Assembly: GCA_963681965.1 (NCBI GenBank)
Contig: OY820579.1
Span: forward strand, 3,392,001-3,456,000
Length of the DNA: 64,000 nt
Reading direction: 5' to 3'
DNA from: a bacterium
Lineage (GTDB): Bacteria; Electryoneota; JAOADG01
The position numbers and the translations under genes were made by a program. Numbering within the stretch: the stretch's first letter is position 1; every line of letters starts with the position of its first letter. Of the stretch, positions 1 through 56,947 are shown in pieces. Below the pieces are notes generated by a model, which did not search any database, had not been told where the DNA came from, and worked only from the letters and a program-made list of their open reading frames with translations.

Positions 1-3000
1 ACATCTGCACTAAGTGCCACTCGTCCACAATACTCGATCGATCGGGTAATGACCGGTACGTTAACAATTGGTGCATCGGGTTGCGATTACACCACATTCA
101 CGGCAGCAATCGCCGATCTGCAAACATTCGGTGTCCAACCGGGTGGGGTGACCTTCCTCGTCAATCCGGGCAATTATCCCGAATTTGTTAATGTTACCCC
201 GTTCACCGGGATGGGTAGCGGGAATCCGGTTGTATTCCGTGCCAATGGTGGGACAGTCACGGTCAATCCCACTCCGACCAGCTCCAGTTTCAATGTCGCC
301 ATCAATTTGATTGGTTGTCAATACGTTACGTTCGACGGAATCAATGTGAACGATCCCAGCACAGGATCCTTCTTCCTTAACGATGGCTATCGCTTGACCA
401 ACCAGACCGCCACTCTAGGGGCACAACATAACACGATCAAGAATGCGACCATCCTGATGCGGAAAATTTCCACTAGTGCCGGAGTGGAACAGACTCCACT
501 CACGACACCGACTTCGGCTGAAGGGGCACAAAGCTATAACACCTATCTGAATCTGAAAATATCCAAAGTGTTGTGTGGATTGTATGCGATTGGGAACCCC
601 ACTTATCCCGACCTCAATACCGAGATCGGTAGCGATAGCGTAGGTCTCAACTACTCAAAACGTTTTACCATCGGCGCGATGCCCAACGACACAATTGGTA
701 GGTACGGTATTGTTTGCGCCGGGCAAATTGGATTAACTATTCACGATTGCGATATTTCTCGCATCCGTAACACCAGTAATACGATCTATGGGATCCAACT
801 CCAGCAAGCCAATTTACAATCGAACGAAAATTGTGTGATCAAAAACAATCGTATCTACGATTTGTTATTAACTTCCTCCGGAAACTTCTATAATGTGGTC
901 GGAATCTATCACGATGCGAACAATACCAATGCATCGGTCAAGTATATCAACAACATGATCTACGGTTTGCAGTCGACGACAACTGGTAATCAAAACACTC
1001 CGAACTACGCTGTTTACGGTATTTATTCGGCGCAGAAAGCTACTTTCAGCCACAATACGATCTGGCTCGATCAAGGTAGTGGTAACGCGTTGAATTGCAG
1101 TTCTACTTGTATCTACTTGTCATCTGGGAGCCAGAACGATACCATTCGAAATAATATTTTTGTGAATACAACTGCCAACCAGACTGGTAACCAAAGACAT
1201 AATGGTCTGACAATTAACTTTACCTCGACGACTTACCGATCGGATTACAATCTCATTTATGTCCCGATTACTGCCAGTGGTAATGCCGTTTATGATCTTT
1301 ATAATTCAATTGCCTACTCCACGCTTAGTGGATGGCAGGCAACCGGTAAGGATACTCATTCACTATCCGGCGATCCCCAGTTTATCAGTACTAGTACTCC
1401 TTACGATGTACACATTCTGCCATATTTAGCGGCATTGAGTTACCGCACCGGCACTCCGATCGCAGAAGTTACCACCGACATCGATGGTCATACGCGCAAT
1501 GCTGCGACACCCGATCTTGGTGCGGACGAATTTACCGCTCTTCCAGGTCTGACCGGTACGAAGACGATTGGTGCGACTGGTTGCGATTATCCGACATTCG
1601 CTGCTGCGATCACCGATCTAACGAATCGAACCGTTGGTGCTGGAGGGGTGACATTTAACGTCAGTTCCGGCAATTATCCGGAATTTGTGACCGTACCACG
1701 GATCTCTGGCATGGGGAGCGGTTCACCGGTCACGTTCCGTGCGAATGGCGGGACGGTAACAGTGAATCCGACGCCAACTGGCGCTGGCACCGAGGTGGGT
1801 ATCGCATTTCGTGGTTGCCAGTATGTGACTTTTGAAGGAATAAACGTTACCGATCCCAGCACGGGAAGTTATTGGCTGGGAGACGGGTATCGCGTCACCA
1901 ATTCATCGGCAACAACCGGTTCGCAGAATATCACGATTAAAAACGCCACGATCACTCTACGGAAAGATTTCCAGTCGTATGGTATTCGGCAGAACTGCTC
2001 CTTTACCCCAACCTCGAGTGCCGGGGCGCAAAGCAATAATCGCTATTTTAATCTGAAGATTTCTAAATGTTATTCTGGACTCTATCTCGATGCGAATAGC
2101 AGTTATCCCGATCTAAACACCGAAATTGGGAGCGACAGTGCCGGGTTGAATTATACGAACCGGTTCACAATCGGAGCTTTGGCGAACGATACGATCGCTT
2201 ATGCAGGGATCTATGCAAATTCGGTTAGTGGTTTATCGATCCATGATATCGATGTTCGGAATGTTACTTCTTTCAGTGGCACTCATGCATACGGTATCTA
2301 TCTAATCCATCCTGTGGCAAGTGGTACGGTAAGGGTATCGAATAACCGGATCAATAATATCGCTGCAATCGGTACGACTGCTTTTTTCCGACCGGTCGGG
2401 ATTTATCAGAACAACGATAATAATGCGCCGTGTTATTATTATAACAATTTCGTTTATTCGTTGTCTTCGATTGCTCCCTCGGCGCCTGTTACAGTCGATT
2501 TGATGATAACTGGATTTTATAGTTTGGGTGGTCGTTGCAACCTCGATAACAACACCTTCCTGATCGATCAGGGCAGTGGAAATAGTCTACAGTTTTGCTC
2601 GGCAGATATCTATCTCTATAATCAGGTGCAAGGTGCCGACACGCTCCGCAATAACGTGATCGCCAATATCACTGGAACGCAATCGGGAACAGTGTACCAT
2701 GTAGGTATCTACAATTCAGGGGTTACTTCGGTCTATTCCAACAATAATTGTTTTTACATTCCGAGCAGTGGTAATGGTTACATCGGCGATATCAGTGGTA
2801 CAAACTACGCTTCTTTGACCTCTTGGCGCACAGCCAGTGGTCAAGATGCAAATTCGACCGCTTCCGATCCTCGTTTTCTCGTTACAACATCCCCCTGCGA
2901 TCTTCATGTCCAGCCATATCTTACGTCTCCGATTAACGGTACTGGAACGGCAATTTCGTATGTCACAACCGATATCGACGGTGATCTCCGCAGCAGTACT

Positions 3001-6000
3001 ACCCCCGACATCGGTGCCGATGAATTTACACCTCTGCCCGGGCTTACAGGTACGAAGACAATCGGTGCTTCGGGATGCGATTACACGACTTTCAATGCCG
3101 CCATCACCGACCTGCAGAATCGAACCGTTGGATCTGGAGGCGTGACCTTCCTGGTAAGTCCGGGTATTTATTCCGAATTTGTGACCATCACTCCGATCAC
3201 TGGAATGGGAAGTGCAAATCCGGTAGTATTCCGTGCCAATGGGGGAACCGTCACGGTCAATCCGACCCCGACCACTGCCGGAACACAAATTGCCATCACC
3301 TTGAAAGGATGCCGGTACGTAACATTTGACGGCATTAACGTGATCGATCCCAGTACCGGATCCTTCTGGCTTGCCGATGCCTATCGCCTGACCAACCTCA
3401 CCACGACGCAAGGGGCGCAACACTGTACGATCAAGAATTCGACCATGGTGATGCGCAAGGATTTCAACAGCTCCGGAGTTGAACAGAGCGCTTCTTATAC
3501 TCCAGCCTCGGCGGAAGGGGCAGAGAGTTACAACACCTATCTGAATTTGAAGATCTCGAAAGTCGCATCCGGTATGTATATGATGGGATATAGCACTTAT
3601 CCGGATATCAATACCGAAATCGGCAGCGATAGCGTTGGTCTTACTTATTCGAAGCGGTTTACCGTCGGTGCCATGGCAAACGATACAATTACCTGGGTGG
3701 GGATATATTGCACATCCCAGATCGGATTAAATATCCACGATTGCGATATCACCCGGGTTCGCTACACTGCTGGCAATATCTACGGCATCCAGATCCTCCA
3801 GAATAATCTTACATCAAGCGCACTCAGTGTGGTAAAGAACAATCGCATCTACGATATGTTGTCAAGTACGTCTGGTACGTTTAATCTGGTATACGGTATC
3901 GATCACGAAGGGAACAATTCCAATCCTTCGGTGCGCTTCATCAACAATATGATTTATAATTTGCAGTCAACTACTACATCGTCAATGTACACCAGCACCA
4001 ATTCTGTGGTCGGTATTTATTCACAACAGTCGGCAGTTATCGACCACAATACGATCTGGATCGATCAGGGTAGCGATCATGCGTTGAATTGCAGTTCCTC
4101 AGCGATCACACTTTCCAACGGTAGTCAGAATGATACCCTTCGAAATAACATTATCATCAACACCACCGCCAATCAAACCAGCTCAGCCAAGCATCGCGGC
4201 ATTACTATTGGTGTGACTCTGACAAATTTTCTTGCCGATAACAATCTTTACTACGTCCCGAATGCAGCCAACGGAAGCTACGTCTATATCAGTTCTGGAG
4301 GTACGACCTATTCGACGCTCAGTGCGTGGCAGGCAACGGGTAGGGACGCGCACTCGGTTACGGGAGATCCCCGGTTTATCAGTCCCAGTGTACCTTATGA
4401 CCTCCACATTCAACCCTATCAGACGGTGCCAGGAAACAACGCCGGAACCACCTCACCGTATGCGACTACCGACATCGATGGAGATTTGCGCAACAGTACG
4501 ACACCGGATATCGGTGCCGACGAATTCACCGCACTGCCAACGATCACGGGAATCAAGACCATTGGCGCCGCGGGATGCGATTATCCGACCTTTTCCGCTG
4601 CCATTTCGGATATGATGAATCGTTCCGTCGGTACCGGCGGGGTCACGTTCAATGTGAGTTCAGGTACTTACAACGAACATCTGTTTATCAATCCGATTCC
4701 CGGTGTTTCAGCCACCAATCCGGTGATCTTCCAAAAAGCATCGGGAACGGTCGAAATCGCCTGCAGTGGGACTTCCGCTACATCTGGATCGAGTGACGTA
4801 ATCGTCTACCTCAACGGTTGCGATTATATCACATTCGATGGCATTAACGTTCGCGATGCCGGAACTAGTACATCCAACTACAATGAATTCGGTTATTACA
4901 TCCACAACTACAATTCAATCGATGGGGCGACCAATCTAGTTTTAAAGAATCTTTCGGTTTCGCTGAACCGCGCCGATTCCAATAGTATTGGCATTTATCA
5001 AGTGTGCGATACTCCCACCAATGCAACGGGTACCAATAGCAATAACCGTTATCTCAATCTGAAAATCTCCGACTGTCAGGTCGGTATCGAATTATTCAGT
5101 ACCAGTAGCTCTTATTGGGATAACGGCAATGAAATCGGGAGTTTATCGACTTCGCTCACCGACACCAGTCGCTTCACTATCGGCGCTACCGGAACCAATT
5201 CGATCGGTGGCGCTGCCGATGCTTGCGGAGTCAGTATCTGGCGGCAAGGCACTGTGAATATTCACGATTGCGATATCTCCAATATTTATTCAGAGTCGGG
5301 TAAAGCTTTCGGCATTTTAATGTCGGGATGCAGTGGTACCGGCGAGATTAAACGGAATCGGATTTTCAATATCTATTCAGCAAGCAATGCTGTAAATGGA
5401 ATGGATATTCTGTCAGGAAGCACCCTCACCACTAAAATCTATAGCAATTTCATCTACAATCTGAATGCAATATCCGGTCTTTCAGCAACGCAAAATACCT
5501 ACGGTATTATTGTTGAAACGGGAACGACCTACATCGATCATAACTCGATCCTGATGAATACGACCAATCCCAATGGTTGGGTTAGTTGCGTCCAGATTCT
5601 CTATTCGACAAATGCGACCTTCCACAACAACATCTTCTATAATAAGCCTGCGCAAGGTGCCGCATCGGTAAATTACACAATTGACTTCGATTATCGCGCG
5701 ACACTGGCTGCTTCCGATAACAATCTATTCTACGATGGCGGTTACGGTCTCTTTGCCTATTATGGTGTAAGTGGTGGCAATTGCGGATCACTGGCTAACT
5801 GGAGATCAAATACGGGCAATGATGCCAATTCCCGCTACGGCAACCCGTACTTCGTCGCCGATACGGGAGCGATCGATTTGCATGTCCAACCGTATCGTCC
5901 ACAGAATACGTCAAATTTCGGTACACCCGTTTCTTGGGTAACCACTGACATTGACGGCGATTCCCGAAATTTCTCAATACCGGATATTGGCGCGGATGAA

Positions 6001-9000
6001 TATGACTTGCAGACATTGACTCTGACCCGTCCGAATGGCGTTGAGATTTGCCATGTTGGGTCTGCCGATACGATTTTGTGGTCTTCGACCGCATTGTCCG
6101 GAAATGTGCAAATCCAACTGAATCGCAACTACCCCTCTGGTTCATGGGAAACGATTATTGCGAACACTGCCAACACCGGTAGCTACACATGGACGGTTAC
6201 CACTCCCGAAAGTCGAGTTGCGCGAATCCGGCTGTTATCGATCGCCAATCCGTTGATTGGTGATACCTCCGATGCCAATTTTACGGTCCGACAGGATAGT
6301 CTCAATATTTCTCGAGTTGGTCAATTCAACACTTCCGTTCATGCATATGAAACAGCCGTCTCAGGTAATTACCAATATGTTGCTACTTCGACTGCCGGTT
6401 TACGGGTAGTGAATATCGCTAATCCGGCAAGTCCGGTAGAGGTCGGTAGTTATACATCGAGTGGATTCCAGATTCAGAATCTGCAAGTGGTCGGCAACTA
6501 CGTTTATGCGACCGATTATTATTCCGGCTTGTATATTTTCAATATCAGCAATCCCACCAGCCCTCAGTTGGTCGGTACGCGCACGTTAGAACATCCCCGG
6601 GGTCTCGCGATTTCCGGTAACTACGCTTACATCGCAGATTACTCCAATTTGCGAATTATCAACATTTCGAATCCAGCCAATCCGACCCAAACGCAAACCT
6701 TTGCGATCCCTGGTCATGGTTTTGATATTGCGGTGCAAGGGAATTATGCATACGTAACGACCGGTGGTGGCGGACTACGAATCGTTGATATCAGTAATCC
6801 CTCGTTACCCAGTGGTGTGGGTTATTTCAATAGTACTCTTTCCAATGGTTCGATCTTAGGAATTGCAGTTGCCGGTAACCAAGCGTATATCACCGATTGT
6901 TCGGAAGACGAGAAATCTTTCCGGGTCATCAACATTAGCAACCCGGCAAGTCCACAACTCGTTACTTCGACCGAAATCGGAGTTAGCGGTACAAGTATTT
7001 ATCTGGCTCGAAATTACGCATATCTCTGTGGCGATTGGGGTTGCCGGGTCATCGACTTAAACGTTCCAACAACACTGACGACGACAGGTTTTTACAATGA
7101 GTTTACCGATGCCTACCAAGTTACGGGTAATGGTATATACGCTTACGTCAGCGATCTTACCGGTGTTCATATTCTAAATACTGCCCTCGCAAATCCATTG
7201 TTGTCGATTACTGCGCCGAACGGTTCCGAACAGTTTACGATTGGTTCGAATCGGAATGTAACTTGGAATGCTTATGGTTTTTCTTCGCCGGTTTCGATTT
7301 CATTAGATCGCAATTATCCATCCGGTAACTGGGAAACTATCCGCGCGAATACAGATAACACCGGTAGCTACGCTTGGACAGTCACAGGTTCCACCACGAC
7401 TACAACCGCCCGAATTCGCATTATTTCGGTCGATAATCCGTTAATCGGCGATACTAGCGACGTCAATTTTACAATCATGGGAACGTTGACGCTAACACGT
7501 CCCGTGAATATGGATTGGATGACCATCGGCAATGCCGATTCTATCTGCTGGACTTCCTCGGGTGTTTCAGGAAATATCATTATCGAATTGAACCGCAATT
7601 ACCCGAACGGTAGTTGGGACACAGTTTCACGGAGTACATCCAATATCGGCTCATTCAATTGGATTGTATCGGGACCTCCCACCGCACACGCTCGCGCGCG
7701 TATCTCGTCAGTTAATTTTCCCGCGGTGCGTGATAGCTCCCTGTGGTGGTCATTCATCATGCCGCCGTACAGCAGTTATCTGGTATGGCAATCACCACTG
7801 ACAGGAACTGCGACCGCGCGGATCGATGTAGGTACCGGCAGTAACATGTATGCCGCCAGTGTCGATCAGCATTTTTATTACTCCACTGACAATGGTGCTA
7901 ATTGGACGGCAGGATCGACAGTATTCGGTTCGACACCCAGTGCAGTGCATTACTTCAATGGATATATTTACGTTGCCACCACCGGCAGCGGTATCTATCG
8001 CTCCAACAATGGCGGCGTATCGTTCTCACAAATCAATATTGGTCTGACCGATCTCACTGTAAACGAATTGGCATACAACAACGGATACCTGTTCGCCGCT
8101 ACGCGAGGAGGTCTGAACCGTTCCACGAATGGCGGCACTACCTGGTTTACTTTGACGTCGGAAGCTGCTGCGACAGCAGCCTTATCGCCATATGATAATA
8201 AACTTTGGGTGGTCTCAGGAACGGGTAATACCGTCTACTATTCAACGAACAATGGGGTCTCTTGGACTACTGCCAACAGTGGAATCAATAGCGCCCCGGT
8301 CGTTTCGTTTGCCTTTACTCCGGTCGCGATTTATGCCGGTACCAGTGACGGTCGCATCTTCGTAACAACAAATGGCGGGACAAGTTGGACCCAGTCGTTG
8401 CAAGTGCCTGGTGCTGGGTTTTACAGCGGACTCGGCTTCAATAGTAATCGTATCTTCTTTGCCGATTGGCTTGGTGCAGGGGTATTTGGATCGGCGGATA
8501 ATGGTACCAATTGGACTGCTGCCGATAGCGGAATTGTTAGCATGCTGGTCTTTGGTCTAGCACGAAGCAACGATGGTTCGATGTTGGCAGCAACCTATGC
8601 CGGCATCCAAAAGACCAACCATGTTCAGGATTCGTATTTGACCTTATCCAACAACAACGGATCCGATCTGCTTCGCTACGGTGTCAACGATACGATCCGC
8701 TGGAGTGGGTTAGGCTTCACAGGAAATGTCAGTATTCAGTTAAACCGCAATTATCCCACTAGCACCTGGGACACCGTGGCAGCCAATGTTGCAAATACCG
8801 GTTCCTATATTTGGAATGTCAATGGTGCATCAACTACTACTGCGCGAATGCGGATCGCTTCGATATCTACTCCGACACTTGCCGATACCAGTGATGCGAA
8901 TCTTGCAATCGTACATCCGCAACTTACCGTCACGGCACCGAATAGTGTGATCATTCTGCAACGCGGTGGTATCGACACGATCCGCTGGACGGCTTCCGAG

Positions 9001-11502
9001 CTGACTGGTAATGTCCGGATTGAAGTAAATCGGAATTATCCCGGTGGCACTTGGGATTCAATTTCGACGCAACCGGCAGGTAACGGTCAATATCTCTGGG
9101 CAATTACTTCTCTACCTACAACTACTGCACGGATCCGCATCAGCAGTCTGACGTTTCCCGATGTCGTCGATCTTTCCGATACTAACTTTACAATCTTTGA
9201 AGGTGTATTCCTGACGCATCCGAATGGAGGTGAATACCTGCAGATCGGTATCACGGACACGATTACCTGGATAACCGGCGCAATTACCGATTCAATTCGA
9301 ATCGAACTCAACCGGAATTATCCGACTGGCAGTTGGGATTCGATCACGACGGTCGCGAATACCGGCAACTACCTCTGGCGGGCTTCCAACCCCGCTACTA
9401 CGACTGCGCGGATACGATTGGTATCGAAAATAACGAATAATGTTTTGGCTCAATCGGCGGCAAATTTCGAGATTTACCATCCTTTGATTTATCCCAATGG
9501 CGGCGAGTCGTTTACGTTGGCGATGCCCGATACGATCCGGTGGAACTTCCACAATTATACCGGCAATATTTACGTGCAGTACACCCGGAATTATCCCGGT
9601 TCGTTTTCGACCATTTCGATGAGTGGTGCGATCCCGGCATCGCGCGGGTATTATGTCTGGACGCCAACGCAATATCCCACATCCACTTACCGGATTCGTC
9701 TGTATCCGATTTCGCGCCCGGAATTGTCCGATACTTCCGATGCGAACTTTGTTGTCGATTCATTACCGCAATTGACGTTGCTGACGCCGAACGGTGACGA
9801 TAATATTCTCGTGGGTGTTCCCGACACGATCCGGTGGACGACGTCTTACAATAGTCATATCTCGATTTACTTGTACCGGAATGGCGTTTCCGGTGCCGAA
9901 GAAGCAATCTCGAATGCCGATACAATACTGACACGGTCGGGGATGTTTGTCTGGACACCGACTGGTCCGTTATCCAATCGCGCGTTTATTCGAATCGTCG
10001 ATAATATGATCGGGGTCGAGGATTATTCGAATAGTGCCTTCCATATCGTGAATTCAAAGATCACCGTCACCCGTCCGAATGGTTTCGAACCGTTTGTTTT
10101 GGGATTACTCGATACGATCCGGTGGACTTCGGTGAATGTGAACGACAGTCTGCAAATCGACGTGAAGCGCGGCAACGGTGCGTGGGATACGATCCGGACG
10201 CGGATACCGAATACGGGATCTTTTGTCTGGCGTGTCGATGGCGCCGCTGCCGGAGCCGCCTGGATTCGTATCCGGTCGATGGCGGACAGTACGATCAGCG
10301 ATGTTTCCGATTCGTCGTTTACCATCTTCTATTTTAATTGGGCGAATACCTATCGAACGCATAATCCTAACGAAAATCCCCAGCAGACCTGGTCGCCGGA
10401 AATCCCGTACGATGCTTCGACATCGGATCGTCCGCCGGCAGATATTTATTTCGCAGCGCAATCGGGCAGTTGTGTCAATCCGGACAGTCTCGGTGTGCAC
10501 TACGTTCGCAGCGCTTCGGACGATATCTCGACCTCGACGGTCAATCGCGAATGGGATTTAACAGCTTCGAATGCGAGCTTCCAGAATGCTCAGGTGACGT
10601 TGCGCTTTACCTCGGCAGATCTACCGACCGGTATAACCGATCCGACAGTTCCGTCGGCGGGAGTGATGGCAGTCCGTTCGGAAGACGAAGGGAACAGTTG
10701 GATTTATCAACCGGGCGGGATGTGTTTTGTCGACGGCGCTGCACATAACTCCAGCGGTTCGACCACTTACCAGTTCTTCGTTACAGCGGTATCGCGGATG
10801 GCACGGTGGAAACTGATCAACAGCGGTCTTAATCCAGTGATGACAATGCCGGATAGCGGACGTCGCTGCACGATCGGTACGGTCGATACGATCCGGTGGA
10901 ATTCGGCGATCGGTGGCGGTTCGGTGAAGATCGAACTGAATCGCAATTTCCCGTCTGGCAATTGGGAGACGATCATTACCGAAACACCGAATAATGGAAT
11001 GTATCTCTGGACGGTCCCGAATTCAGCGACGACAACGGCGCGAATCCGCATCACGTCATATTGGGGCAATCCGAATGCATTGTACCCGACCGATTGCGAT
11101 ACCTGTAACGTGAACTTCTTGATCGTACCGTCCTACAGCCCGAAGCCGACAGCACCCGCCAGATTATCGGCAGAGCTAAACAGCAATGATATGATTCTGA
11201 ACTGGTCAGCGGTCACGACCGATACGACTGGTGCCGCGCTGACACCGGACGGCTACCGGATCTACTCGAGTACTACCGCGCTGGCGCCGTGGACGCTCTT
11301 GGCGACGGTCGGTGGCAGTATCACCACCTGGACCGATACTAATATCGTAGCGTCGCAATACCGGTTTTATCAGGTGCGTGCCTATTTCGGCATGTCATCC
11401 AGTTCATCGAGTACAGCCGGATCAGGGCACATCGATGATGAACGAGTCGGAACTGATGGTTCCACCACCGGATCAGTTACTCGCGCCAAGGGAGGTTGGT
11501 AA
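1..11502 (+). CDS. Giant modular secreted/surface protein A, 5'-truncated: 4 x ~500-aa beta-helix units, LVIVD repeats, BNR-type propeller, 10 Ig-like PNGGE modules, conserved unknown domain, C-terminal FN3-like domain
   Basis: Frame 1 is open from base 1 (TSALSATRPQYSIDRV precedes the ATG at 49), so the true start is upstream. Units end in TTDIDG..R....PDIGADEF. GNYAYV/LRIVDISNP (LVIVD), STNGGTTW (BNR/Asp-box) and PNGGE..DTIRW..NRNYP..W..ARIRI..DTSDANF repeats are present. Confidence 0.9.
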   Translation, partial: TSALSATRPQYSIDRVMTGTLTIGASGCDYTTFTAAIADLQTFGVQPGGVTFLVNPGNYPEFVNVTPFTGMGSGNPVVFRANGGTVTVNPTPTSSSFNVAINLIGCQYVTFDGINVNDPSTGSFFLNDGYRLTNQTATLGAQHNTIKNATILMRKISTSAGVEQTPLTTPTSAEGAQSYNTYLNLKISKVLCGLYAIGNPTYPDLNTEIGSDSVGLNYSKRFTIGAMPNDTIGRYGIVCAGQIGLTIHDCDISRIRNTSNTIYGIQLQQANLQSNENCVIKNNRIYDLLLTSSGNFYNVVGIYHDANNTNASVKYINNMIYGLQSTTTGNQNTPNYAVYGIYSAQKATFSHNTIWLDQGSGNALNCSSTCIYLSSGSQNDTIRNNIFVNTTANQTGNQRHNGLTINFTSTTYRSDYNLIYVPITASGNAVYDLYNSIAYSTLSGWQATGKDTHSLSGDPQFISTSTPYDVHILPYLAALSYRTGTPIAEVTTDIDGHTRNAATPDLGADEFTALPGLTGTKTIGATGCDYPTFAAAITDLTNRTVGAGGVTFNVSSGNYPEFVTVPRISGMGSGSPVTFRANGGTVTVNPTPTGAGTEVGIAFRGCQYVTFEGINVTDPSTGSYWLGDGYRVTNSSATTGSQNITIKNATITLRKDFQSYGIRQNCSFTPTSSAGAQSNNRYFNLKISKCYSGLYLDANSSYPDLNTEIGSDSAGLNYTNRFTIGALANDTIAYAGIYANSVSGLSIHDIDVRNVTSFSGTHAYGIYLIHPVASGTVRVSNNRINNIAAIGTTAFFRPVGIYQNNDNNAPCYYYNNFVYSLSSIAPSAPVTVDLMITGFYSLGGRCNLDNNTFLIDQGSGNSLQFCSADIYLYNQVQGADTLRNNVIANITGTQSGTVYHVGIYNSGVTSVYSNNNCFYIPSSGNGYIGDISGTNYASLTSWRTASGQDANSTASDPRFLVTTSPCDLHVQPYLTSPINGTGTAISYVTTDIDGDLRSSTTPDIGADEFTPLPGLTGTKTIGASGCDYTTFNAAITDLQNRTVGSGGVTFLVSPGIYSEFVTITPITGMGSANPVVFRANGGTVTVNPTPTTAGTQIAITLKGCRYVTFDGINVIDPSTGSFWLADAYRLTNLTTTQGAQHCTIKNSTMVMRKDFNSSGVEQSASYTPASAEGAESYNTYLNLKISKVASGMYMMGYSTYPDINTEIGSDSVGLTYSKRFTVGAMANDTITWVGIYCTSQIGLNIHDCDITRVRYTAGNIYGIQILQNNLTSSALSVVKNNRIYDMLSSTSGTFNLVYGIDHEGNNSNPSVRFINNMIYNLQSTTTSSMYTSTNSVVGIYSQQSAVIDHNTIWIDQGSDHALNCSSSAITLSNGSQNDTLRNNIIINTTANQTSSAKHRGITIGVTLTNFLADNNLYYVPNAANGSYVYISSGGTTYSTLSAWQATGRDAHSVTGDPRFISPSVPYDLHIQPYQTVPGNNAGTTSPYATTDIDGDLRNSTTPDIGADEFTALPTITGIKTIGAAGCDYPTFSAAISDMMNRSVGTGGVTFNVSSGTYNEHLFINPIPGVSATNPVIFQKASGTVEIACSGTSATSGSSDVIVYLNGCDYITFDGINVRDAGTSTSNYNEFGYYIHNYNSIDGATNLVLKNLSVSLNRADSNSIGIYQVCDTPTNATGTNSNNRYLNLKISDCQVGIELFSTSSSYWDNGNEIGSLSTSLTDTSRFTIGATGTNSIGGAADACGVSIWRQGTVNIHDCDISNIYSESGKAFGILMSGCSGTGEIKRNRIFNIYSASNAVNGMDILSGSTLTTKIYSNFIYNLNAISGLSATQNTYGIIVETGTTYIDHNSILMNTTNPNGWVSCVQILYSTNATFHNNIFYNKPAQGAASVNYTIDFDYRATLAASDNNLFYDGGYGLFAYYGVSGGNCGSLANWRSNTGNDANSRYGNPYFVADTGAIDLHVQPYRPQNTSNFGTPVSWVTTDIDGDSRNFSIPDIGADEYDLQTLTLTRPNGVEICHVGSADTILWSSTALSGNVQIQLNRNYPSGSWETIIANTANTGSYTWTVTTPESRVARIRLLSIANPLIGDTSDANFTVRQDSLNISRVGQFNTSVHAYETAVSGNYQYVATSTAGLRVVNIANPASPVEVGSYTSSGFQIQNLQVVGNYVYATDYYSGLYIFNISNPTSPQLVGTRTLEHPRGLAISGNYAYIADYSNLRIINISNPANPTQTQTFAIPGHGFDIAVQGNYAYVTTGGGGLRIVDISNPSLPSGVGYFNSTLSNGSILGIAVAGNQAYITDCSEDEKSFRVINISNPASPQLVTSTEIGVSGTSIYLARNYAYLCGDWGCRVIDLNVPTTLTTTGFYNEFTDAYQVTGNGIYAYVSDLTGVHILNTALANPLLSITAPNGSEQFTIGSNRNVTWNAYGFSSPVSISLDRNYPSGNWETIRANTDNTGSYAWTVTGSTTTTTARIRIISVDNPLIGDTSDVNFTIMGTLTLTRPVNMDWMTIGNADSICWTSSGVSGNIIIELNRNYPNGSWDTVSRSTSNIGSFNWIVSGPPTAHARARISSVNFPAVRDSSLWWSFIMPPYSSYLVWQSPLTGTATARIDVGTGSNMYAASVDQHFYYSTDNGANWTAGSTVFGSTPSAVHYFNGYIYVATTGSGIYRSNNGGVSFSQINIGLTDLTVNELAYNNGYLFAATRGGLNRSTNGGTTWFTLTSEAAATAALSPYDNKLWVVSGTGNTVYYSTNNGVSWTTANSGINSAPVVSFAFTPVAIYAGTSDGRIFVTTNGGTSWTQSLQVPGAGFYSGLGFNSNRIFFADWLGAGVFGSADNGTNWTAADSGIVSMLVFGLARSNDGSMLAATYAGIQKTNHVQDSYLTLSNNNGSDLLRYGVNDTIRWSGLGFTGNVSIQLNRNYPTSTWDTVAANVANTGSYIWNVNGASTTTARMRIASISTPTLADTSDANLAIVHPQLTVTAPNSVIILQRGGIDTIRWTASELTGNVRIEVNRNYPGGTWDSISTQPAGNGQYLWAITSLPTTTARIRISSLTFPDVVDLSDTNFTIFEGVFLTHPNGGEYLQIGITDTITWITGAITDSIRIELNRNYPTGSWDSITTVANTGNYLWRASNPATTTARIRLVSKITNNVLAQSAANFEIYHPLIYPNGGESFTLAMPDTIRWNFHNYTGNIYVQYTRNYPGSFSTISMSGAIPASRGYYVWTPTQYPTSTYRIRLYPISRPELSDTSDANFVVDSLPQLTLLTPNGDDNILVGVPDTIRWTTSYNSHISIYLYRNGVSGAEEAISNADTILTRSGMFVWTPTGPLSNRAFIRIVDNMIGVEDYSNSAFHIVNSKITVTRPNGFEPFVLGLLDTIRWTSVNVNDSLQIDVKRGNGAWDTIRTRIPNTGSFVWRVDGAAAGAAWIRIRSMADSTISDVSDSSFTIFYFNWANTYRTHNPNENPQQTWSPEIPYDASTSDRPPADIYFAAQSGSCVNPDSLGVHYVRSASDDISTSTVNREWDLTASNASFQNAQVTLRFTSADLPTGITDPTVPSAGVMAVRSEDEGNSWIYQPGGMCFVDGAAHNSSGSTTYQFFVTAVSRMARWKLINSGLNPVMTMPDSGRRCTIGTVDTIRWNSAIGGGSVKIELNRNFPSGNWETIITETPNNGMYLWTVPNSATTTARIRITSYWGNPNALYPTDCDTCNVNFLIVPSYSPKPTAPARLSAELNSNDMILNWSAVTTDTTGAALTPDGYRIYSSTTALAPWTLLATVGGSITTWTDTNIVASQYRFYQVRAYFGMSSSSSSTAGSGHIDDERVGTDGSTTGSVTRAKGGW
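49..6006 (+). repeat. Four tandem ~1.5-kb intragenic repeats encoding ~500-aa right-handed beta-helix units
   Basis: Units start near 49, 1549, 3043 and 4543 with TG(T/I)(L/K)TIGA.GCDY.TF.AAI.D and end with PD(L/I)GADE(F/Y). Confidence 0.85.
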
Positions 11503-14435
11503 TGAGTGAGCAATTGCTTGCCTCACTTGCGGCACAACTAAAAAAACTGGGAAGTACCGGCGAAAAAGCCGGTAACCCAACTCCGAAGCTGGTTCCCGGA
11601 GAGCGTCGCGAAATTGCAATCATCTTTCTCGATCTTAAGGGGTTCACGGCACTATCGGAAAAGTTGAACGATCCGGAAGCGATCAATGCGATTATCAACG
11701 GTCCGAGCGGTATCATGACGGTGCTGCATCAGATCGTCGAACGGCATGGCGGTTATGTCGACAAGTACGAAGGCGATCTGATTATGGCACTGTTCGGTGC
11801 GAAAGTCGCTTCGGAAAACGACGCCTACCGCGCCGTTAGTTGCGGCATGAAGTTGATCGAAGCAGTGTTGACGGTGGACGAAGCAGTCTCTGAACTTGGG
11901 ATTAGGATTGGTGCCCGGTGCGGAATCAATTTCGGTTGGGCGACGTTTGGTCCTGATCCATCCGGTCACCACACTGCGATGGGTACGGCAGTCAATGTCG
12001 CATCGCGTATGGAATCGAGTGCGGCGGTCAACAGCGTACAGGTCACCAGCAGGGTCGTGAAAATGACTCACGACAGCTTTATCTGGGAGGATCTCGGCGG
12101 TATCGAAGTGAAAGGTGTGGCAAAACCGGTCCACTCTTATCGACTGATCGGCTACGGCGATATTCATAAAGCGCGCTGGGAGCGGACATCGTGGATGCAG
12201 TCGGTACCATTGATCGGACGTCAGGACGAATTCGATTTTCTTTACCAGCATTGGTTATCGCTCGAAGAAGAAGTCGAGGAGAATCCCCGTGGTGGTGCGA
12301 TCCACAAGATGATTGGATTGCGTGCCGATCCCGGGTGCGGTAAATCGCGATTGGTGTTCGAATTGGTGAAGCGAGTCCAGCAAGAAAATGAGATAACATT
12401 CTTGCGCGGTCACACGATGTCGGTGGCACAACCACCGTTTTATCTCTGGGCGAATCTGTTGCGCAATTTCTTCCGGATTGTCGACGATAAACATGAGCAT
12501 ACCCGGTTCGAACAACTCTATACGGAATTCGGCTCAGCCTATGGATTGACGGATAATGCCGATTTCAACAGTTGTTATCCTTATCTATGTCATATCCTCG
12601 GATTTCATGTCGAAGAATTGTCGGAACTGGCAGATCGCGTTTTATTTCAGCAAACGAAGATGGCAATCCGCAATTTCATGCAAGTACTGGCACAGCAACT
12701 GCCGAAGCTGGTGATCTTCCTCGACGACCTGCACTGGCTCGATTCCGGATCGCAGGAAATTCTCGAATTCGTGCTGCTGAATTGCGATGCCACGCGACCG
12801 ATGTTTATCCTCACGACATTTCGACCGGATCGCGACGACGGTCAGCAGTTGGAATTGGATCTTCACGATTCGTATGTCGAATACCATGAGCGGATGCTGA
12901 CACCATTGACGCTGGAGCTGACGCACCAGCATGTGAAAGCGATGCTGGCGGCTTACAGCCCTAATACCGAAGCGTGCGATCTCGATCCAGTCGTGGTGGA
13001 GCGGATCTTCGACTTCTCGCAAGGTAATCCATTTTATACGGAAGAATTTGTGCTGGATTGGCTTGAGACCGATGCCTTGCAATTGAATGAGAACTGCTGG
13101 TCGCTGGCGCCGAACCATCACGGCGATCTCCCGAACAGCATTACCAGTTTAGTTCGGTCGCGGGTCGATCGACTGCCGCTGGAAGAGAAGCAAGTATTGC
13201 AGCAATGTTCGGTCATGGGACTGGATTTCTCGCTGCGGTTATTCCAACGGGTGAAGGCGAAGCTGGCGCAATCGGATAATGCCGAGCCACTGTTGAATGG
13301 ATTGGTGTTTCGCGATTTTCTCCGCAATGTTCGATCGTTGAAAGAAACCTCATACAAATTCAAGCTGACAATCTCGCGGACGGTCGCCTACCAGACACTA
13401 TTGCGGGAGAATCGCACACTCTTGCATCGCCTGACCGCCGAAGCGCTGGAAGAGCTGCTCGCGACCGATACCGATTATTACGCCGGAGTCTTGGCGGAAC
13501 ACTGGTTCCATGCCGGTGATCTGAACAAGGCGTTCGATTACGGTATTCGGTCGGTGAAATATTTACGACGAGCGTGGCACAATCGCGAAGCGGTCAAGCT
13601 GGGTGAGGCGATCCTGAATTGGTTCCCACCACACGACGATTATCGCCAGAATCCACACGCACAAACATATTTCGATTTGATTTATCAGCTCGAAACGATC
13701 TATGCGATCCTGGGCAAGCGAACCGAGCAGAAGCGACTGCTCGATCAATTGCAGGAATTCGTATTGATCCCGCCATTCGACGACCATGCCGCAGCAATCG
13801 TGAATCGGATGGGAAATTATCATTATTTAACCGGTGATATTTCGGATGCTGCCGAGTGTTACGAGCTGTGTCGGGAAGTGGCACAGGCGCGTGGCGATAC
13901 GAAGATTGCAGCGCAAGCGATCGGAAATCTCGGATTGATCTCGATTCAATTCCGTCGTATCGACGAAGCCGAAGCGCTCCTGAAACAATCGATCGAGATG
14001 TTGCACTCGATCGACGATCAGCACGCGGTGAATGATTTCGAGTTGAATCTCGCCGGGTTGTTTTACGAGAAGAAGGAACCGGCGGAAAGCGAGCGCTTGC
14101 TGGAACAATGCCGGGAGCGGTCGAAACGACTGCACGATCGGAGCGCCGAAGCGCGGTTATCGATCAATCTCTCAACGCTGAATCTAGAATTGGAGCAATT
14201 CGATTCAGCGATCGAAAATGCGACGATTGCATATCGTATCTTCAACGAAATCGGGGAACGAAAGAGCGAAGGGGTTGCGTTGGCTAATTTGGGGCGCGTC
14301 TATTTGCGAAAGGAGAATCGGGAAAAGGCGCGCGAGTGTCTCGAACTTGCGTTGACGATCCACCGCGAAGTGAACGACAGCAGTGCGGAAAAACGAACAC
14401 TTAAAAATTTAACCGAATTGAGTGGCAATACTTGA
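11502..14435 (+). CDS. Class III adenylate/guanylate cyclase - STAND/AAA ATPase - TPR protein (copy 1)
   Basis: Cyclase motifs FLDLKGFT, DKYEGD and TAMGTAVNVASRMES; Walker A ADPGCGKS; Walker B IFLDDLHW; C-terminal TPR-like helices. ATG at 11502 overlaps the upstream TAA (TAATG), with SD GGAGG at 11491-11495. No TM segment seen. Confidence 0.92.
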   Translation: MSEQLLASLAAQLKKLGSTGEKAGNPTPKLVPGERREIAIIFLDLKGFTALSEKLNDPEAINAIINGPSGIMTVLHQIVERHGGYVDKYEGDLIMALFGAKVASENDAYRAVSCGMKLIEAVLTVDEAVSELGIRIGARCGINFGWATFGPDPSGHHTAMGTAVNVASRMESSAAVNSVQVTSRVVKMTHDSFIWEDLGGIEVKGVAKPVHSYRLIGYGDIHKARWERTSWMQSVPLIGRQDEFDFLYQHWLSLEEEVEENPRGGAIHKMIGLRADPGCGKSRLVFELVKRVQQENEITFLRGHTMSVAQPPFYLWANLLRNFFRIVDDKHEHTRFEQLYTEFGSAYGLTDNADFNSCYPYLCHILGFHVEELSELADRVLFQQTKMAIRNFMQVLAQQLPKLVIFLDDLHWLDSGSQEILEFVLLNCDATRPMFILTTFRPDRDDGQQLELDLHDSYVEYHERMLTPLTLELTHQHVKAMLAAYSPNTEACDLDPVVVERIFDFSQGNPFYTEEFVLDWLETDALQLNENCWSLAPNHHGDLPNSITSLVRSRVDRLPLEEKQVLQQCSVMGLDFSLRLFQRVKAKLAQSDNAEPLLNGLVFRDFLRNVRSLKETSYKFKLTISRTVAYQTLLRENRTLLHRLTAEALEELLATDTDYYAGVLAEHWFHAGDLNKAFDYGIRSVKYLRRAWHNREAVKLGEAILNWFPPHDDYRQNPHAQTYFDLIYQLETIYAILGKRTEQKRLLDQLQEFVLIPPFDDHAAAIVNRMGNYHYLTGDISDAAECYELCREVAQARGDTKIAAQAIGNLGLISIQFRRIDEAEALLKQSIEMLHSIDDQHAVNDFELNLAGLFYEKKEPAESERLLEQCRERSKRLHDRSAEARLSINLSTLNLELEQFDSAIENATIAYRIFNEIGERKSEGVALANLGRVYLRKENREKARECLELALTIHREVNDSSAEKRTLKNLTELSGNT

Positions 14436-14880: not shown

Positions 14881-15974
14881 TATACCATTTCTTGAAAATC
14901 GTGTCGCATTGTGATTTACTCTCACACTCGTGTTACAGATTTTACAATTTCTGGTTGATTGAGTAGCTGTTGTATTGCCCATGTTACCCGATCTCTTAGT
15001 TCTTCTCTGGACTTGCTGTACCAATGGTTGAAGTAATGCTCTTTGATATACAACCACAATCGTTCTATCGGGTTGAGATCGGGTGAATAGGGTGGCAAGA
15101 ATATTGGTTGAATATGATGCCAGTTTAACGATTTAATCTTGTGCCAACTGGCATTGTCCAGCACCATTGTTACCCTTTCGCCCTTGGTATATTCGGCGAA
15201 GTGGTCAAGGAAAATCTGGAACAGTTCCCGATCCACTTCCGGCATTTGCAGCGAAAACAACCGACCGGATAAGGGTTGTACCGCGCCCAAAATGTTTTCC
15301 CGCAAATGGGTGCCGGTAAAGGGAACCGTTTGTCGTTCTCCTTTCCGCATCCAGCGTCGGCGCGGGCGTGGATCGCCGGTAATGCCGCTTTCGTCGTAGA
15401 ACCAAATCCGATTGGGATCGCTGGCAAGCAGCGACGACAGCAGTTCTGTGAAAGCCAACCGGGCCTCGGCATCCTGTTTTGCCGGCCAGGATCGCGGCAT
15501 ATTCAAGGCAAATCGTTCATCGCGAACAAGACGGGCGAGCGTGGAATAGCCCAATTCGATGCGTAGTTCGCTACGCAATACGCCATGCAACTTGCGTAGT
15601 GTCCAGTGTGTCTGTCCGTGCTGCTCGGGATGGGTAAGCCAATCGACAACCAGAAACCGTTGTTCTTTGTTAGCTTTGCGCGGTCGTCCCGGTCGCGGTA
15701 TCCGTTTCAAACGGTCAATGCCACCGGCGTTCCAATGCTGAACCCACCGCTGTAAAGATCGCGGTACAACCGACAACACTTGACAAACTTGATTGTCCGG
15801 TAACCCTAACAAGAGCATTTTAATCCCTTGAAAGCGACAGTGCTCGTCATGGTCAACCGAACAACGAAGGGCTTCTTCGATCTCGTCCAAAGTACCATTC
15901 GCAGGATTAGGAGATAAAGGTCGCATGAAATAAAGATAAGAAACAATGCGACACTATTTATGAGAAACGGTATA
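14881..15974 (-). mobile_element. IS630-family insertion sequence with ~30-bp imperfect terminal inverted repeats and TA target duplication
   Basis: Left end TATACCATTTCTTGAAAATCGTGTCGCATTGT (14881-14912); reverse complement of right end TATACCGTTTCTCATAAATAGTGTCGCATTGT (15943-15974); TA at both outer ends. Confidence 0.9.
14922..15926 (-). CDS. IS630-family DDE transposase (single intact frame)
   Basis: N-terminal HTH and RPGRPRK; WFYDESG, VLDNASWH and LPPYSPDLNPIERLW (DDE_3 signature). Confidence 0.95.
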   Translation of the reverse strand: MRPLSPNPANGTLDEIEEALRCSVDHDEHCRFQGIKMLLLGLPDNQVCQVLSVVPRSLQRWVQHWNAGGIDRLKRIPRPGRPRKANKEQRFLVVDWLTHPEQHGQTHWTLRKLHGVLRSELRIELGYSTLARLVRDERFALNMPRSWPAKQDAEARLAFTELLSSLLASDPNRIWFYDESGITGDPRPRRRWMRKGERQTVPFTGTHLRENILGAVQPLSGRLFSLQMPEVDRELFQIFLDHFAEYTKGERVTMVLDNASWHKIKSLNWHHIQPIFLPPYSPDLNPIERLWLYIKEHYFNHWYSKSREELRDRVTWAIQQLLNQPEIVKSVTRV

Positions 15975-22830: not shown

Positions 22831-22989
22831 AACTCACTACATTCGACATAATACAGTTAAGATCAATAAGTGTCGTTGACTTCGAGATCGCACCTCTTAC
22901 TGGATATTCCATTTAATCGTTTGAACCGAATGGGGAGTGTCCCCCAAAAAACGATCTCCCCACCCGGTTCCTGTATTGCGACTGATTCA

Positions 22990-23469: not shown

Positions 23470-23521
23470 GACATACTCCTCGATATTACAAACAAGCTTC
23501 TACTTGTTGTATTGGTATTTA

Positions 23522-54016: not shown

Positions 54017-56947
54017 TTACTTTGTTTCCAACGCATTAAGTTCTTGAAGTGTTTTTTCTTCAGCATTACGATCATTCACTTCGCGATGGATTGACAGCGC
54101 CATGTGATAGAACTCGCGCGCTTTATCGGTTTCGGAATTGCGGCGGAACAAATTGGCAAGATTTGCCAATGCTAATCCTTCACTTCTCCGTTCTCCGATT
54201 TCGTTGTAAATCTGACACGCATTGCGACACGTTTCGATCGCAGTTGCGATATTTCCCATTCGAACTTGAAGTTTCACAAGATTGCTCGATAATCTTCCCT
54301 CGGCACTGCGATCGTGCAGTAATTTCGAACGTTCGCGACAACTGTCCAATAATTGTTCGCACTGTTCCCATTCGCCTTTACCGAAATAAATACCAGCAAG
54401 ATTCTGCTCGAATACATTGACCGAGTGAGTCTCTTTCAACGCACTCAACTGCTCGATCGCAGCTTTTAACAACTCTTCCGCTTCGGCAATCTCGCCGCGG
54501 TGATTGGCAATCAGACCGAGATTTCCGATTGCCAGCGCAGCAGTTTTCGCATCCGATTTTTCCAAAGCCAATTCGCTGGATCGCTGGTAATGTATAGCTG
54601 CACCATCGATATCGCCGATTAAGTAAAGATAATTCCCGATCCGGTTTTCGACTGTCGCCGTGTGACCGGAAAAATGTTCCATTTCTACAAAGAAGGATAA
54701 CCGATCAAGAATGAGCTTCTGTTCGGACCGTTTCCCAAGAATTGCATAAACACCTTCAAGTTGACTAAGCAAATCATAATACGATTTAGCCAATTGATGA
54801 TGAACCATATCCTCGTACCGCGGAAACCAATCCAAAATATTTTCTGCCATTTTTGCGGCTTCGCGATTGTGCCAAGCCCGGCGAAGTTGCTTCACAGCAC
54901 GCGACCCGTATTCCAACGATTTAGTTAAATCCCCGGCATGATACCAATGCTCGGCTAGAACGCCCGAGAAATATTCGGCATCGTTACCCAGAATCTCTTC
55001 AAGCGATTCCGCAGTCAAACGATGAATTAACGAGCGATTTTCTTTCAAAAGCGTCTGATACGCTACCGTTCGCGATATCGTCAATTTGAATTTGTATGAT
55101 GTCTCTTTCAGCGAAGTGATGTTGCGAAGAAAATCGCGAAATACTAATCCATTCAGTAGTGGTTCGGCATTTTCCACATGCGATAATTTTGTTTTTACCG
55201 ATTGAAATAGCTTTAAGGAGAAATCGAGTCCCATCACCGAGCATTGTTGCAGTACCTGTTTTTCTTCGTGTGGAAGCCGATCGACCCTTGCTCGCACCAA
55301 ACTGGTAATACTATTTGGCAAATCGCCGTGACCACTGTCGGTTAATCGCCAGTGTTCGTCTTTGAAGTGCAAGGTGCCGCTCTCCAGCCAATCCAACACG
55401 AATTCTTCGGTGTAAAATGGATTTCCCTGCGAAAATTCGAAGATCCGTTCGATAATCGTCTTATTCAATTTTACCGGTTCAGCGGAAGAACTATAAGCCA
55501 TCAGCATCGATGAAACATGATGCTGCGCTTGTTCCAACGTTAATGGTACAATCACTCGCTCGTGATAATCGACATAGGCTTCGCGAAGATCCAAAGTCAG
55601 ACGTTGTCCGTCGTCGCGATCGGGTCGAAAGGTGGCGAGAAAAAACATCGGTCGAAACGAATCGCAATTGGTGATCATGAATTCGAGAATTTCCTGCGAT
55701 CCCGAATCGAGCCAATGCAAATCGTCAAGGAAAAACACGATGCGAGGTAAATGATCGGCTAAGATCTGAAAGAGATTGCGGATTGCCAATTTCGATTGTT
55801 GATACAAAACTTGATCGGATAATTCCGATAATTCTTCGGATTCAAATCCCAAAATGTGACAGAGGAATGGAAAACAGGCTTGATATTCGGGATTTTCGCT
55901 TAGACCATACGCCGAACCGAATTCGTAGTATAACTGTTCAAACCTCGCCAGTTCCGATTTATCGTCGGTGATGCGAAAGAAATTGCGAAACAAATTTGCC
56001 CAAAGGTAAAACGGCGGTTGCGCGACCGACATCGTGTGACCGCGCAACAACGTGATCTCGTGATGAGATCGTATATGCTTCAAAAATTCGAAAACCAAGC
56101 GCGATTTACCGCACCCCGGATCGCCACGTAGACCGATCATCGTGTGTTTAACGCCACCGCGCGGATTGATTTCGGTAGGCGAATCCAGTGCTTTCCAACG
56201 CTCCTTGATAAATTCCAATTCGGAGTCGCGTCCGATAATCGGTACCGATTGCATCCACGATGTTCTTTCCCAGCGTGCTTTATGGATATCGCCAAACCCG
56301 ATTAGCCGATACGTATGAATTGGTTTACTCACCCCTTTGACTTCAACACCGCCTAAATCTTCCCAGATAAAATGATCGTGCGTCAATTTGACGACCGAAC
56401 TGGTGACTTGCACGGTGTTCACTGCCGCGGTGGATTCCATCCGCGATGCGACATTGACTGCGGTTCCCATGGCAGTGTGATGTCCGGTCGGATCGGGTCC
56501 AAATGTAACCCAACCGAAGTTGATACCGCACCGTGCACCGATCCGGATTCCCAATCCCGACACGGCGTCATCAAGTGTCTTCACCGCCTCGACCAATTTC
56601 ATTCCACAACTAACGGCGAGGTAACTGTCGTTTTCCGATGCTTGTTTCGCACCGAATAGCGCCATTACCAAATCGCCTTCGTATTTGTCGACATAACCGC
56701 CATGATGTTCGACAATTTTATGGAGCACTGTCATAATTCCGTGTGGACCATTGATGATCGAATTGATCGCCTCGGGATCGTTCAATTTTTCCGATAATGC
56801 GGTGAATCCTTTCAAGTCGAGAAATAGAATTGCGATTTCTCGGCGTTCACCCGGAAGCAGCTTGGGCGTTGGTGGTCCGGATTTATCGCCCGTCGAACCC
56901 AATTTTTTCAATTGTGCGGTCAACGAAGCAAGTAGTTGATCACTCAT
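54017..56947 (-). CDS. Class III adenylate/guanylate cyclase - STAND/AAA ATPase - TPR protein (copy 2)
   Basis: Full-length paralog of 11502-14435, starting MSDQLLASL; GDPGCGKS and FFLDDLHW motifs. ATG at 56947 overlaps the upstream TGA (ATGA), with SD GGAGG at 56958-56954. Confidence 0.92.
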   Translation of the reverse strand: MSDQLLASLTAQLKKLGSTGDKSGPPTPKLLPGERREIAILFLDLKGFTALSEKLNDPEAINSIINGPHGIMTVLHKIVEHHGGYVDKYEGDLVMALFGAKQASENDSYLAVSCGMKLVEAVKTLDDAVSGLGIRIGARCGINFGWVTFGPDPTGHHTAMGTAVNVASRMESTAAVNTVQVTSSVVKLTHDHFIWEDLGGVEVKGVSKPIHTYRLIGFGDIHKARWERTSWMQSVPIIGRDSELEFIKERWKALDSPTEINPRGGVKHTMIGLRGDPGCGKSRLVFEFLKHIRSHHEITLLRGHTMSVAQPPFYLWANLFRNFFRITDDKSELARFEQLYYEFGSAYGLSENPEYQACFPFLCHILGFESEELSELSDQVLYQQSKLAIRNLFQILADHLPRIVFFLDDLHWLDSGSQEILEFMITNCDSFRPMFFLATFRPDRDDGQRLTLDLREAYVDYHERVIVPLTLEQAQHHVSSMLMAYSSSAEPVKLNKTIIERIFEFSQGNPFYTEEFVLDWLESGTLHFKDEHWRLTDSGHGDLPNSITSLVRARVDRLPHEEKQVLQQCSVMGLDFSLKLFQSVKTKLSHVENAEPLLNGLVFRDFLRNITSLKETSYKFKLTISRTVAYQTLLKENRSLIHRLTAESLEEILGNDAEYFSGVLAEHWYHAGDLTKSLEYGSRAVKQLRRAWHNREAAKMAENILDWFPRYEDMVHHQLAKSYYDLLSQLEGVYAILGKRSEQKLILDRLSFFVEMEHFSGHTATVENRIGNYLYLIGDIDGAAIHYQRSSELALEKSDAKTAALAIGNLGLIANHRGEIAEAEELLKAAIEQLSALKETHSVNVFEQNLAGIYFGKGEWEQCEQLLDSCRERSKLLHDRSAEGRLSSNLVKLQVRMGNIATAIETCRNACQIYNEIGERRSEGLALANLANLFRRNSETDKAREFYHMALSIHREVNDRNAEEKTLQELNALETK

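Follow-up and report, generated by a model that had tools for sequence, protein, structure and literature searches.

A predicted adenylate cyclase-STAND-TPR gene is linked to the 3′ ends of giant modular exoprotein genes in one rare bacterial family

We analysed a 64,000-nucleotide stretch of a bacterial genome (contig OY820579.1 of assembly GCA_963681965.1, positions 3,392,001 to 3,456,000 of the forward strand; hereafter the window) that carries, in two copies, a gene for a giant modular exoprotein running directly into a gene for a soluble class III cyclase joined to a STAND-type NTPase and tetratricopeptide repeats (TPR). The host belongs to a Fermentibacterota-like phylum that bears a type IX secretion system (T9SS) and has no cultured model; its genome (G000) is complete, at 4.24 Mb.

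Results

A duplicated unit joins giant and cyclase genes

Among its open reading frames (ORFs), the window holds three giants and two of the cyclase type (Table 1). The region from 8655 to 14412 on the forward strand and that from 59788 to 54036 on the reverse strand form a single colinear BLASTN alignment of 5823 columns at 68.8% nucleotide identity, and ungapped inverted arms (I1-I7) span the identical region. The 5.8-kb duplicated unit consists of a ~948-aa C-terminal block of the giant, which we call the C-block, and the gene for the 977- or 976-aa cyclase-AAA_16-TPR protein. Both copies lie where the original prediction, made from the letters of the sequence and without database searches, had placed them.

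Table 1. Features of the giant-cyclase loci and their surroundings (window positions unless a genome or another locus is named)
Feature	Coordinates	Strand	Evidence
Giant 1, 3879 aa, exported modular protein	1..11502; start 138 nt before the window, genome 3391863	+	ORF, domain matches
C-block copy 1, ~948 aa	8655..11499	+	BLASTN, repeat structure, model
Junction 1, GGAGG and TAATG stop/start overlap	11491..11504	+	sequence
Cyclase 1, P0001, 977 aa	11502..14435	+	profile matches, 3R5G alignment
Giant 2, 2950 aa	56944..64000; past the window end to genome 3457796	-	ORF, domain matches
C-block copy 2	56947..59788	-	BLASTN, codon alignment
Junction 2, GGAGG and ATGA start/stop overlap	56944..56958	-	sequence
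Cyclase 2, P0002, 976 aa, same architecture as P0001	54017..56947	-	profile matches, alignment
Giant 3, P0005, 2972 aa	44979..53897	-	ORF, C-block alignment
Fn3-like terminal module, giant 1	11100-11499	+	
Fn3-like terminal module, giant 2	56947-57350	-	
Fn3-like terminal module, giant 3	44982-45380	-	
IS630-like transposase	14922-15926	-	
Signalling block	16063-33340	-	
Three further giant ORFs	genome 3458166-3476048	-	
Same-strand giant array, ~39 kb	genome 3436979-3476048	-	
HisKA_3 kinase and GerE regulator pair, G000	genome 1046586-1049463 (L188 586-3460)		
HisKA_3 kinase and GerE regulator pair, G003	L022 3045-5920	-	
Kinase-AAA_16-TPR gene after the third cyclase	genome 1062263-1067278 (L188 16263 onward)		
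1452-aa T9SS cargo protein gene, Calditrichota	L087 5471-9826	+	

At both junctions, Gly-Gly codons near the end of the giant gene spell GGAGG. Giant 1 ends in AAG GGA GGT TGG TAA, with its stop codon at 11500-11502 and the ATG of cyclase 1 at 11502-11504, an overlap of 1 nt; the GGAGG at 11491-11495 is spaced 6 nt from that ATG. Giant 2 ends in GGA GGT CGA AAA TGA, with its stop codon at 56946-56944 and the ATG of cyclase 2 at 56947-56945, an overlap of 4 nt, and here too the GGAGG (56958-56954) lies 6 nt from the start. The proposal that the Gly-Gly codons supply the Shine-Dalgarno (SD) sequence next to TAATG and ATGA overlaps can thus be read directly at both sites, and the tails around the junctions do differ as had been claimed: giants 1 and 2 cannot be aligned over their final ~35 residues, and the junction is compact all the same. 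The ATG starts are backed by alignment, which gives the same first Met in the six members of the cyclase clade described below. SD use in this genome is real, with a strong SD at 363 of 1879 ATG-started ORFs versus 22 of 1879 internal control windows. Promoter and terminator scans around both junctions returned counts at shuffle level.

Between the two units, synonymous divergence (dS) amounts to 1.79 in the C-block and 1.99 in the cyclase. These near-equal values, together with the single colinear alignment, indicate that the unit was duplicated long ago in one piece. The ratio of nonsynonymous to synonymous divergence (dN/dS) is 0.155 for the C-block and 0.116 for the cyclase, and both halves of both copies are kept under purifying selection. 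With 69% nucleotide identity and dS near 2, the arms are too diverged for a recent repeat or an active invertible switch, and both were ruled out. An assembly artefact was also ruled out: single Logan contigs from runs of two studies carry the full stretch unchanged, and short contigs bridge the junction in two further runs, although some of the runs carrying the stretch may be the assembly's own source data. Directly after cyclase 1 lies a gene for an IS630-like transposase with DDE_3 and helix-turn-helix (HTH) domains, which may be tied to the relocation of the duplicated unit.

The cyclases combine a class III catalytic domain with a STAND-TPR switch

The proteins P0001 and P0002 are 69% identical over 973 aa without a gap. 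In P0001, a class III cyclase domain (aa 35-215) is followed by an AAA_16 STAND NTPase (aa 271-427) and a TPR sensor (aa ~640-977), within which several TPR families match at aa 733-958 above their curated cut-offs. The two window cyclases score 70.3 and 76.8 bits with Guanylate_cyc (PF00211; cut-off 21.9) and 58.2 and 57.2 bits with AAA_16 (cut-off 32.6). They show the tripartite STAND order of effector (cyclase), NTPase (AAA_16) and repeat sensor (TPR), and their Walker A (GCGKS) and Walker B (FLDDLHW) motifs are intact, so that the STAND-TPR switch layout put forward in the original prediction holds. Across the clade, Walker A (GxGKS) is kept in all six members and the Walker B DD in five, the G002 member (G002_C34) having ED.

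The closest solved structure is the catalytic domain of the Pseudomonas aeruginosa adenylate cyclase CyaB (3R5G, E 1.2e-22). Residues D44, K88, D92, T158, N165 and R169 align to its metal-binding Asp pair, Lys/Thr specificity pair, Asn and Arg, in agreement with the ATP-type residues recognised earlier. Five of them (D44, K88, D92, T158 and R169) are invariant in the six clade members, and N165 is present in five, with Ser in the G003_C129 cyclase. The predicted product of these cyclases is cyclic AMP (cAMP). No segment resembling a transmembrane helix was found in either window cyclase by Kyte-Doolittle analysis (19-mer maxima 1.18 and 1.01), which upholds their description as soluble proteins.

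STAND NTPases are ligand-gated switches that oligomerise in a nucleotide-dependent manner, and class III cyclase domains are active as dimers; we infer nucleotide-dependent oligomerisation for the proteins described here as well. Divergence between cyclases 1 and 2 is uneven along the protein: identity is 85% in the catalytic domain, 71% in the NTPase and 54% in the TPR part, which diverges fastest. The genome contains six cNMP_binding genes (at least five proteins above cut-off).

The giants are modular and share a beta-sandwich C-block

The giants have a signal-like hydrophobic segment at the N-terminus. Giant 1 is built from four ~500-aa repeats, LVIVD repeats, an Asp-box/BNR-like region and Ig-like repeats, and giant 2 from an Asp-box region, LVIVD repeats, an FGE-sulfatase domain and the C-block. 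Giant 3, whose start lies 120 nt past the end of cyclase 2 in the same orientation, holds two C-block copies, which share 39-44% identity with those of the other two giants. Over 945 codons, copies 1 and 2 of the C-block are 66% identical, and they follow one order: about six Ig-like repeats of ~95 aa, an all-beta domain of ~200 aa, an Ig-like domain, an Fn3-like domain and a Ser-rich tail. The ~95-aa repeats recur in dozens of proteins of this genome.

The predicted model of the C-block is all-beta, with a mean predicted local distance difference test score (pLDDT) of 67.6 and a disordered tail below 50, and a fold search with it retrieved generic Ig/Fn3 tandems only. Pfam and NCBIfam scans of the giants' C-terminal 450 aa gave nothing significant, and the ~200-aa all-beta domain has no family match in them. 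The T9SS sorting domain Por_Secre_tail, which is present in two neighbouring proteins of the window, has no match in giants 1-3, nor in a scan of their terminal 450 aa that allowed E values up to 1, and Pfam scans of the giants revealed no RTX or type I secretion system signature. When cyclase residues 430-977 were co-folded with the C-terminal 130 aa of giant 1, in a run without controls, the score was 0.00, which bears on binding in neither direction.

Across the genome, 34 proteins, these giants among them, have one and the same Fn3-like domain no more than 60 aa from the C-terminus, then a Ser-rich linker and a short tail with Lys or Arg mostly as its last residue. This terminal module shows neither a Pfam or NCBIfam match nor a T9SS sorting domain; it may serve for C-terminal sorting or anchoring in a way specific to this lineage. 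Giant 2 is preceded on its own strand, head to tail, by further giant ORFs of 2111, 1629 and 2026 aa, which together with giant 2, cyclase 2 and giant 3 make a same-strand array of ~39 kb whose giants all end in the Fn3-like module.

The pairing recurs in the same genome and in a second genus

The genome encodes seven full-length cyclase-AAA_16-TPR paralogs, 13 cyclase domains and 52 ORFs of at least 1500 aa. A third unit was found in it, with a cyclase 38% identical to P0001 placed 33 nt behind a 1957-aa giant, AAAGGA upstream, and the last 866 aa of that giant being the C-block (37% identity). The remaining four full-length paralogs have no giant directly upstream.

We sampled 79 species genomes of the phylum, in which a match at E ≤ 1e-140 occurs only in four (G000, G002, G003 and G044). 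Two clade cyclases, each directly behind a C-block giant, occur in G003, from another genus of the same family. At one locus a cyclase with 54% identity to P0001 comes after a giant of 2981 aa, and at a second locus the cyclase, which shares 38% identity with P0001, is preceded by giants of 2196 and 1637 aa; both cyclases share an ATGA overlap with the giant before them, and both of these giants carry the C-block at their end. With the three of three clade cyclases that follow C-block giants in G000, the gene linkage is real and conserved in two genera.

The cyclase tree comprised 25 rows, namely every family cyclase and selected best outside hits from 102 loci, the others being omitted. The five giant-linked cyclases and the single G002 cyclase form one clade with support 100 (Shimodaira-Hasegawa-like approximate likelihood-ratio test, SH-aLRT) and the topology ((cyc3, G002), (G003_C129, (G003_C148, (cyc1, cyc2)))), where cyc1 to cyc3 are the cyclases of G000. 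A search of 5.8 billion proteins added two clade members, the Logan-only P0008 and P0010, both with 45% identity to the third cyclase. A scan of JGI metagenomes, of whose 485 relatives we took the best 80, yielded none above 36% identity and no further clade members. The nearest cyclase relatives outside the family come from records named Fermentibacteria and Aegiribacteria.

For homologs outside the family, 79 loci were fetched from 185,579 species genomes, and 53 were assessable, with at least 3 kb of upstream sequence. An upstream ORF of at least 1000 aa was found at one of the 53, in a Calditrichota metagenome-assembled genome (MAG). There, a 1452-aa T9SS cargo protein gene (MAM, CARDB and Por_Secre_tail domains) ends 129 nt before a distantly related cyclase-AAA_16-TPR gene.

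Other signalling genes near the loci

The third cyclase is followed by a gene for a 1671-aa protein that combines a Ser/Thr kinase domain, AAA_16 and TPR with an HTH end of the sigma-54-activator type, a second STAND signalling protein at that locus. In both G000 and G003, genes for a 734-aa HisKA_3 histidine kinase and a GerE-type response regulator of 221/222 aa lie upstream of a giant-cyclase locus, in opposite orientation; the two regulators are 44% identical, and the pair may regulate the giant. In the window, a dense signalling block holds two large PAS/GAF hybrid histidine kinases, a multi-HAMP methyl-accepting chemotaxis protein, CheW and a GerE response regulator, as well as a B12-binding and URO-D-like (methyltransferase-type) pair.

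Discussion

Our analysis identifies a gene pair in which the partner of the cyclase, in each of five giant-linked cases, is a giant that ends in the shared beta-sandwich C-block. On balance, we lean towards the view that this is a lineage-restricted operon of one rare family, in which a STAND-type adenylate cyclase gene would be co-transcribed with the 3′ end of a C-block giant gene and, in four of five cases, translationally coupled to it. From the gene arrangement we infer that the cyclase would be translated from the transcript of the giant, mainly by ribosomes that have just finished the giant ORF, and that its production would be confined to the times and places at which the giant gene is expressed to the end. 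A ligand bound at the fast-evolving TPR part could then release the NTPase switch and trigger nucleotide-dependent oligomerisation, which would pair the cyclase domains as active dimers. The resulting cAMP might report or tune a "giant-expressing" surface state through the cell's cNMP-binding proteins, which would amount to a regulatory link to the giant. The roles that the original prediction had attached to the pair, as adhesin, export reporter or defence, are guesses.

Several observations weigh against a dedicated operon. Stop/start overlaps are frequent among same-strand neighbours in this genome, with a 4-nt overlap in 244 and a 1-nt overlap in 43 of 2319 pairs (287 of 2319 in total), so that the overlap alone is ordinary and the recurring gene pair is the notable part. 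C-blocks also occur with no cyclase directly behind them, in giant 3 and in the 2196-aa giant of G003. In G002, a genome of 2.2 Mb from the same family, the only clade cyclase is not directly behind a C-block giant (0/1), its upstream gene being divergent and unrelated (659 aa), and the sole complete C-block giant has a 160-aa ORF behind it. No clade cyclase was found in G001, a MAG of the same genus in 720 contigs and 96% complete. The pairing is therefore found in two genomes only (G000 and G003), of one family, and since all instances fall in one clade it has effectively one origin. Moreover, none of the cNMP_binding genes lies near any cyclase locus of this genome. Tabulating the genes upstream of cyclase homologs, as the original prediction had proposed, bears out the association within the family, where five of six clade cyclases follow giants. 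It fails beyond it: none of the 53 assessable outside loci has an upstream ORF of at least 1500 aa, and distant homologs have ordinary upstream genes.

The trees point the same way. A comparison of the cyclase and C-block trees had been proposed as a check for co-evolution, and they show no co-divergence beyond the recent pair. The G003_C148 cyclase is preceded by a giant whose full-length ortholog in G000 is giant 3 (57% over 3002 aa) and neither giant 1 nor giant 2; in the tree of the terminal block it pairs with giant 3 at 99/99, separately from the other two. A tree constrained to unite the C-blocks of giants 1 and 2 with that of the G003_C148 giant loses 13.3 log-likelihood units and is not rejected by the approximately unbiased (AU) test (p-AU 0.153); the incongruence rests on the 99/99 branch and the full-length orthology rather than on this test. 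Because the G003 partner is the ortholog of giant 3, either the partner changed, the cyclase having swapped among C-block giants, or copies of an ancestral giant-cyclase-giant-cyclase array were lost, with different members lost in each genus.

These findings give weight to a serious alternative, which we judge less probable than the operon but well worth considering: the cyclase may have landed once behind a C-block giant and been copied and moved with the C-block ever since, by duplication and recombination, with read-through transcription and no functional relation between the two products. Such historical hitch-hiking would fit the single clade, the duplication of the unit in one piece, the lack of orthology between partner giants of the two genera, the cyclase that G002 retains without a giant, the frequency of overlapping neighbours and the IS630-like transposase adjoining cyclase 1, and the 52 ORFs of at least 1500 aa that share Ig-like repeats offer ample substrate for recombination. 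It fits less well with the retention of adjacency in five of six clade members, down to 37-38% identity, and of the stop/start overlap in four of five despite complete turnover of the flanking tail sequence, or with an SD-like motif that has been rebuilt from different sequence as Gly-Gly, Glu-Gly or intergenic letters. The original prediction had itself raised the prospect of a one-off duplication, with unrelated genes upstream of close homologs in other genomes. The second part is realised in G002; the two of two G003 cyclases behind C-block giants and the diverged third copy in G000 argue that the pair is not a one-off duplication.

It is also possible, though in our view improbable, that the TPR part senses its own giant directly, binding the tail or C-block before or during export so that an un-exported or jammed giant would switch on cAMP in a secretion or quality checkpoint. 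The TPR is the fastest-diverging part of the cyclase (54% identity versus 85% for the cyclase domain), the tails of the giants differ between copies, and coupling would presumably place a new cyclase beside the C-terminus of the giant. However, with signal peptides on the giants and a cytoplasmic cyclase, contact would be transient at most; the G002 cyclase has no adjacent giant, and the C-block tree does not mirror the cyclase tree, which lends no support to co-evolution. We give similarly little credence to an extended version, in which the cyclase-STAND-TPR protein would be a dedicated cytoplasmic checkpoint whose TPR reads the variable C-terminal tail or an export intermediate, cAMP would report completed synthesis or failed export of a 3000-4000-aa protein, and C-block plus cyclase would form a portable 3′ module recombinable behind different N-terminal "business ends". 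Least probable of all, and unlikely, is anti-phage defence of the Pycsar or Avs kind, in which the STAND sensor would recognise a phage protein and the cyclase would make a cyclic nucleotide alarm. STAND-TPR sensor logic does resemble that of Avs proteins, and in a PADLOC scan the cyclase domain is hit by PycC models (best E 1.5e-16) and the C-terminal part by a TPR model, but these are domain-level matches, expected for any class III cyclase. There is no cNMP-binding effector gene beside any copy, the specificity residues are of the ATP-using type, and seven full-length paralogs in one genome with vertical conservation across genera speak against such a role.

Soluble cyclase-STAND-TPR proteins were widespread in the search of 5.8 billion proteins, and to our knowledge no member has an identified ligand or physiological role. 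A conserved and apparently coupled partner gives a concrete, testable hypothesis for one clade of these proteins. If the link is functional, it would represent a new way of tying the production of very large surface proteins to cAMP signalling; if the cyclase is a passenger, the locus documents the shuffling of a constant 3′ cassette among modular giant genes.

The architecture of the cyclase is already known and widely annotated. Homologs in JGI are named "class 3 adenylate cyclase/TPR repeat protein", multidomain class III cyclases with the same order of N-terminal cyclase, AAA_16/MalT-like NTPase and TPR. A preprint describes Mycobacterium tuberculosis Rv0386, in the part that concerns us, as cyclase, MalT/ATPase and TPR (bioRxiv 10.1101/2024.03.06.583649). 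Cyclase-ATPase-TPR-LuxR proteins of the Rv0386 type end in a LuxR HTH, and the cyclases described here lack this C-terminal output. The cyclase-NTPase-TPR portion of the TOMM kinase/cyclase fusion family (TIGR03903) aligns to P0001 residues 31-842 with 186.6 bits, far below the family cut-off of 705.75; the match begins at profile position 281, and a kinase domain is absent from P0001, which places it outside the family. A likeness to TOMM systems nevertheless appears in the kinase-AAA_16-TPR protein encoded right after the third cyclase copy. CyaB shares the metal-binding Asp, the Lys/Thr pair, the Asn and the Arg with the present cyclases; it is a membrane-anchored sensor cyclase, and the regulator here is instead a soluble STAND-TPR module. 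Pycsar PycC has the cyclase fold in common, as the domain-level PADLOC matches reflect, and differs from our loci, which have no adjacent cNMP-binding effector and ATP-type residues.

In the LapA/LapD/LapG system, the second messenger c-di-GMP controls giant adhesins. We take that system as a working analogy only: the likeness lies in the genetic linkage between a nucleotide second-messenger device and a giant surface protein, while the messenger and the proteins differ, Lap components having lain outside our searches. Our search of the literature, which covered the papers themselves, found none on a cyclase-STAND gene coupled to a giant surface-protein gene. Set beside these known systems, what is new here is the conserved overlapping linkage of a cyclase-STAND-TPR gene to a constant 3′ cassette of modular giant exoproteins.

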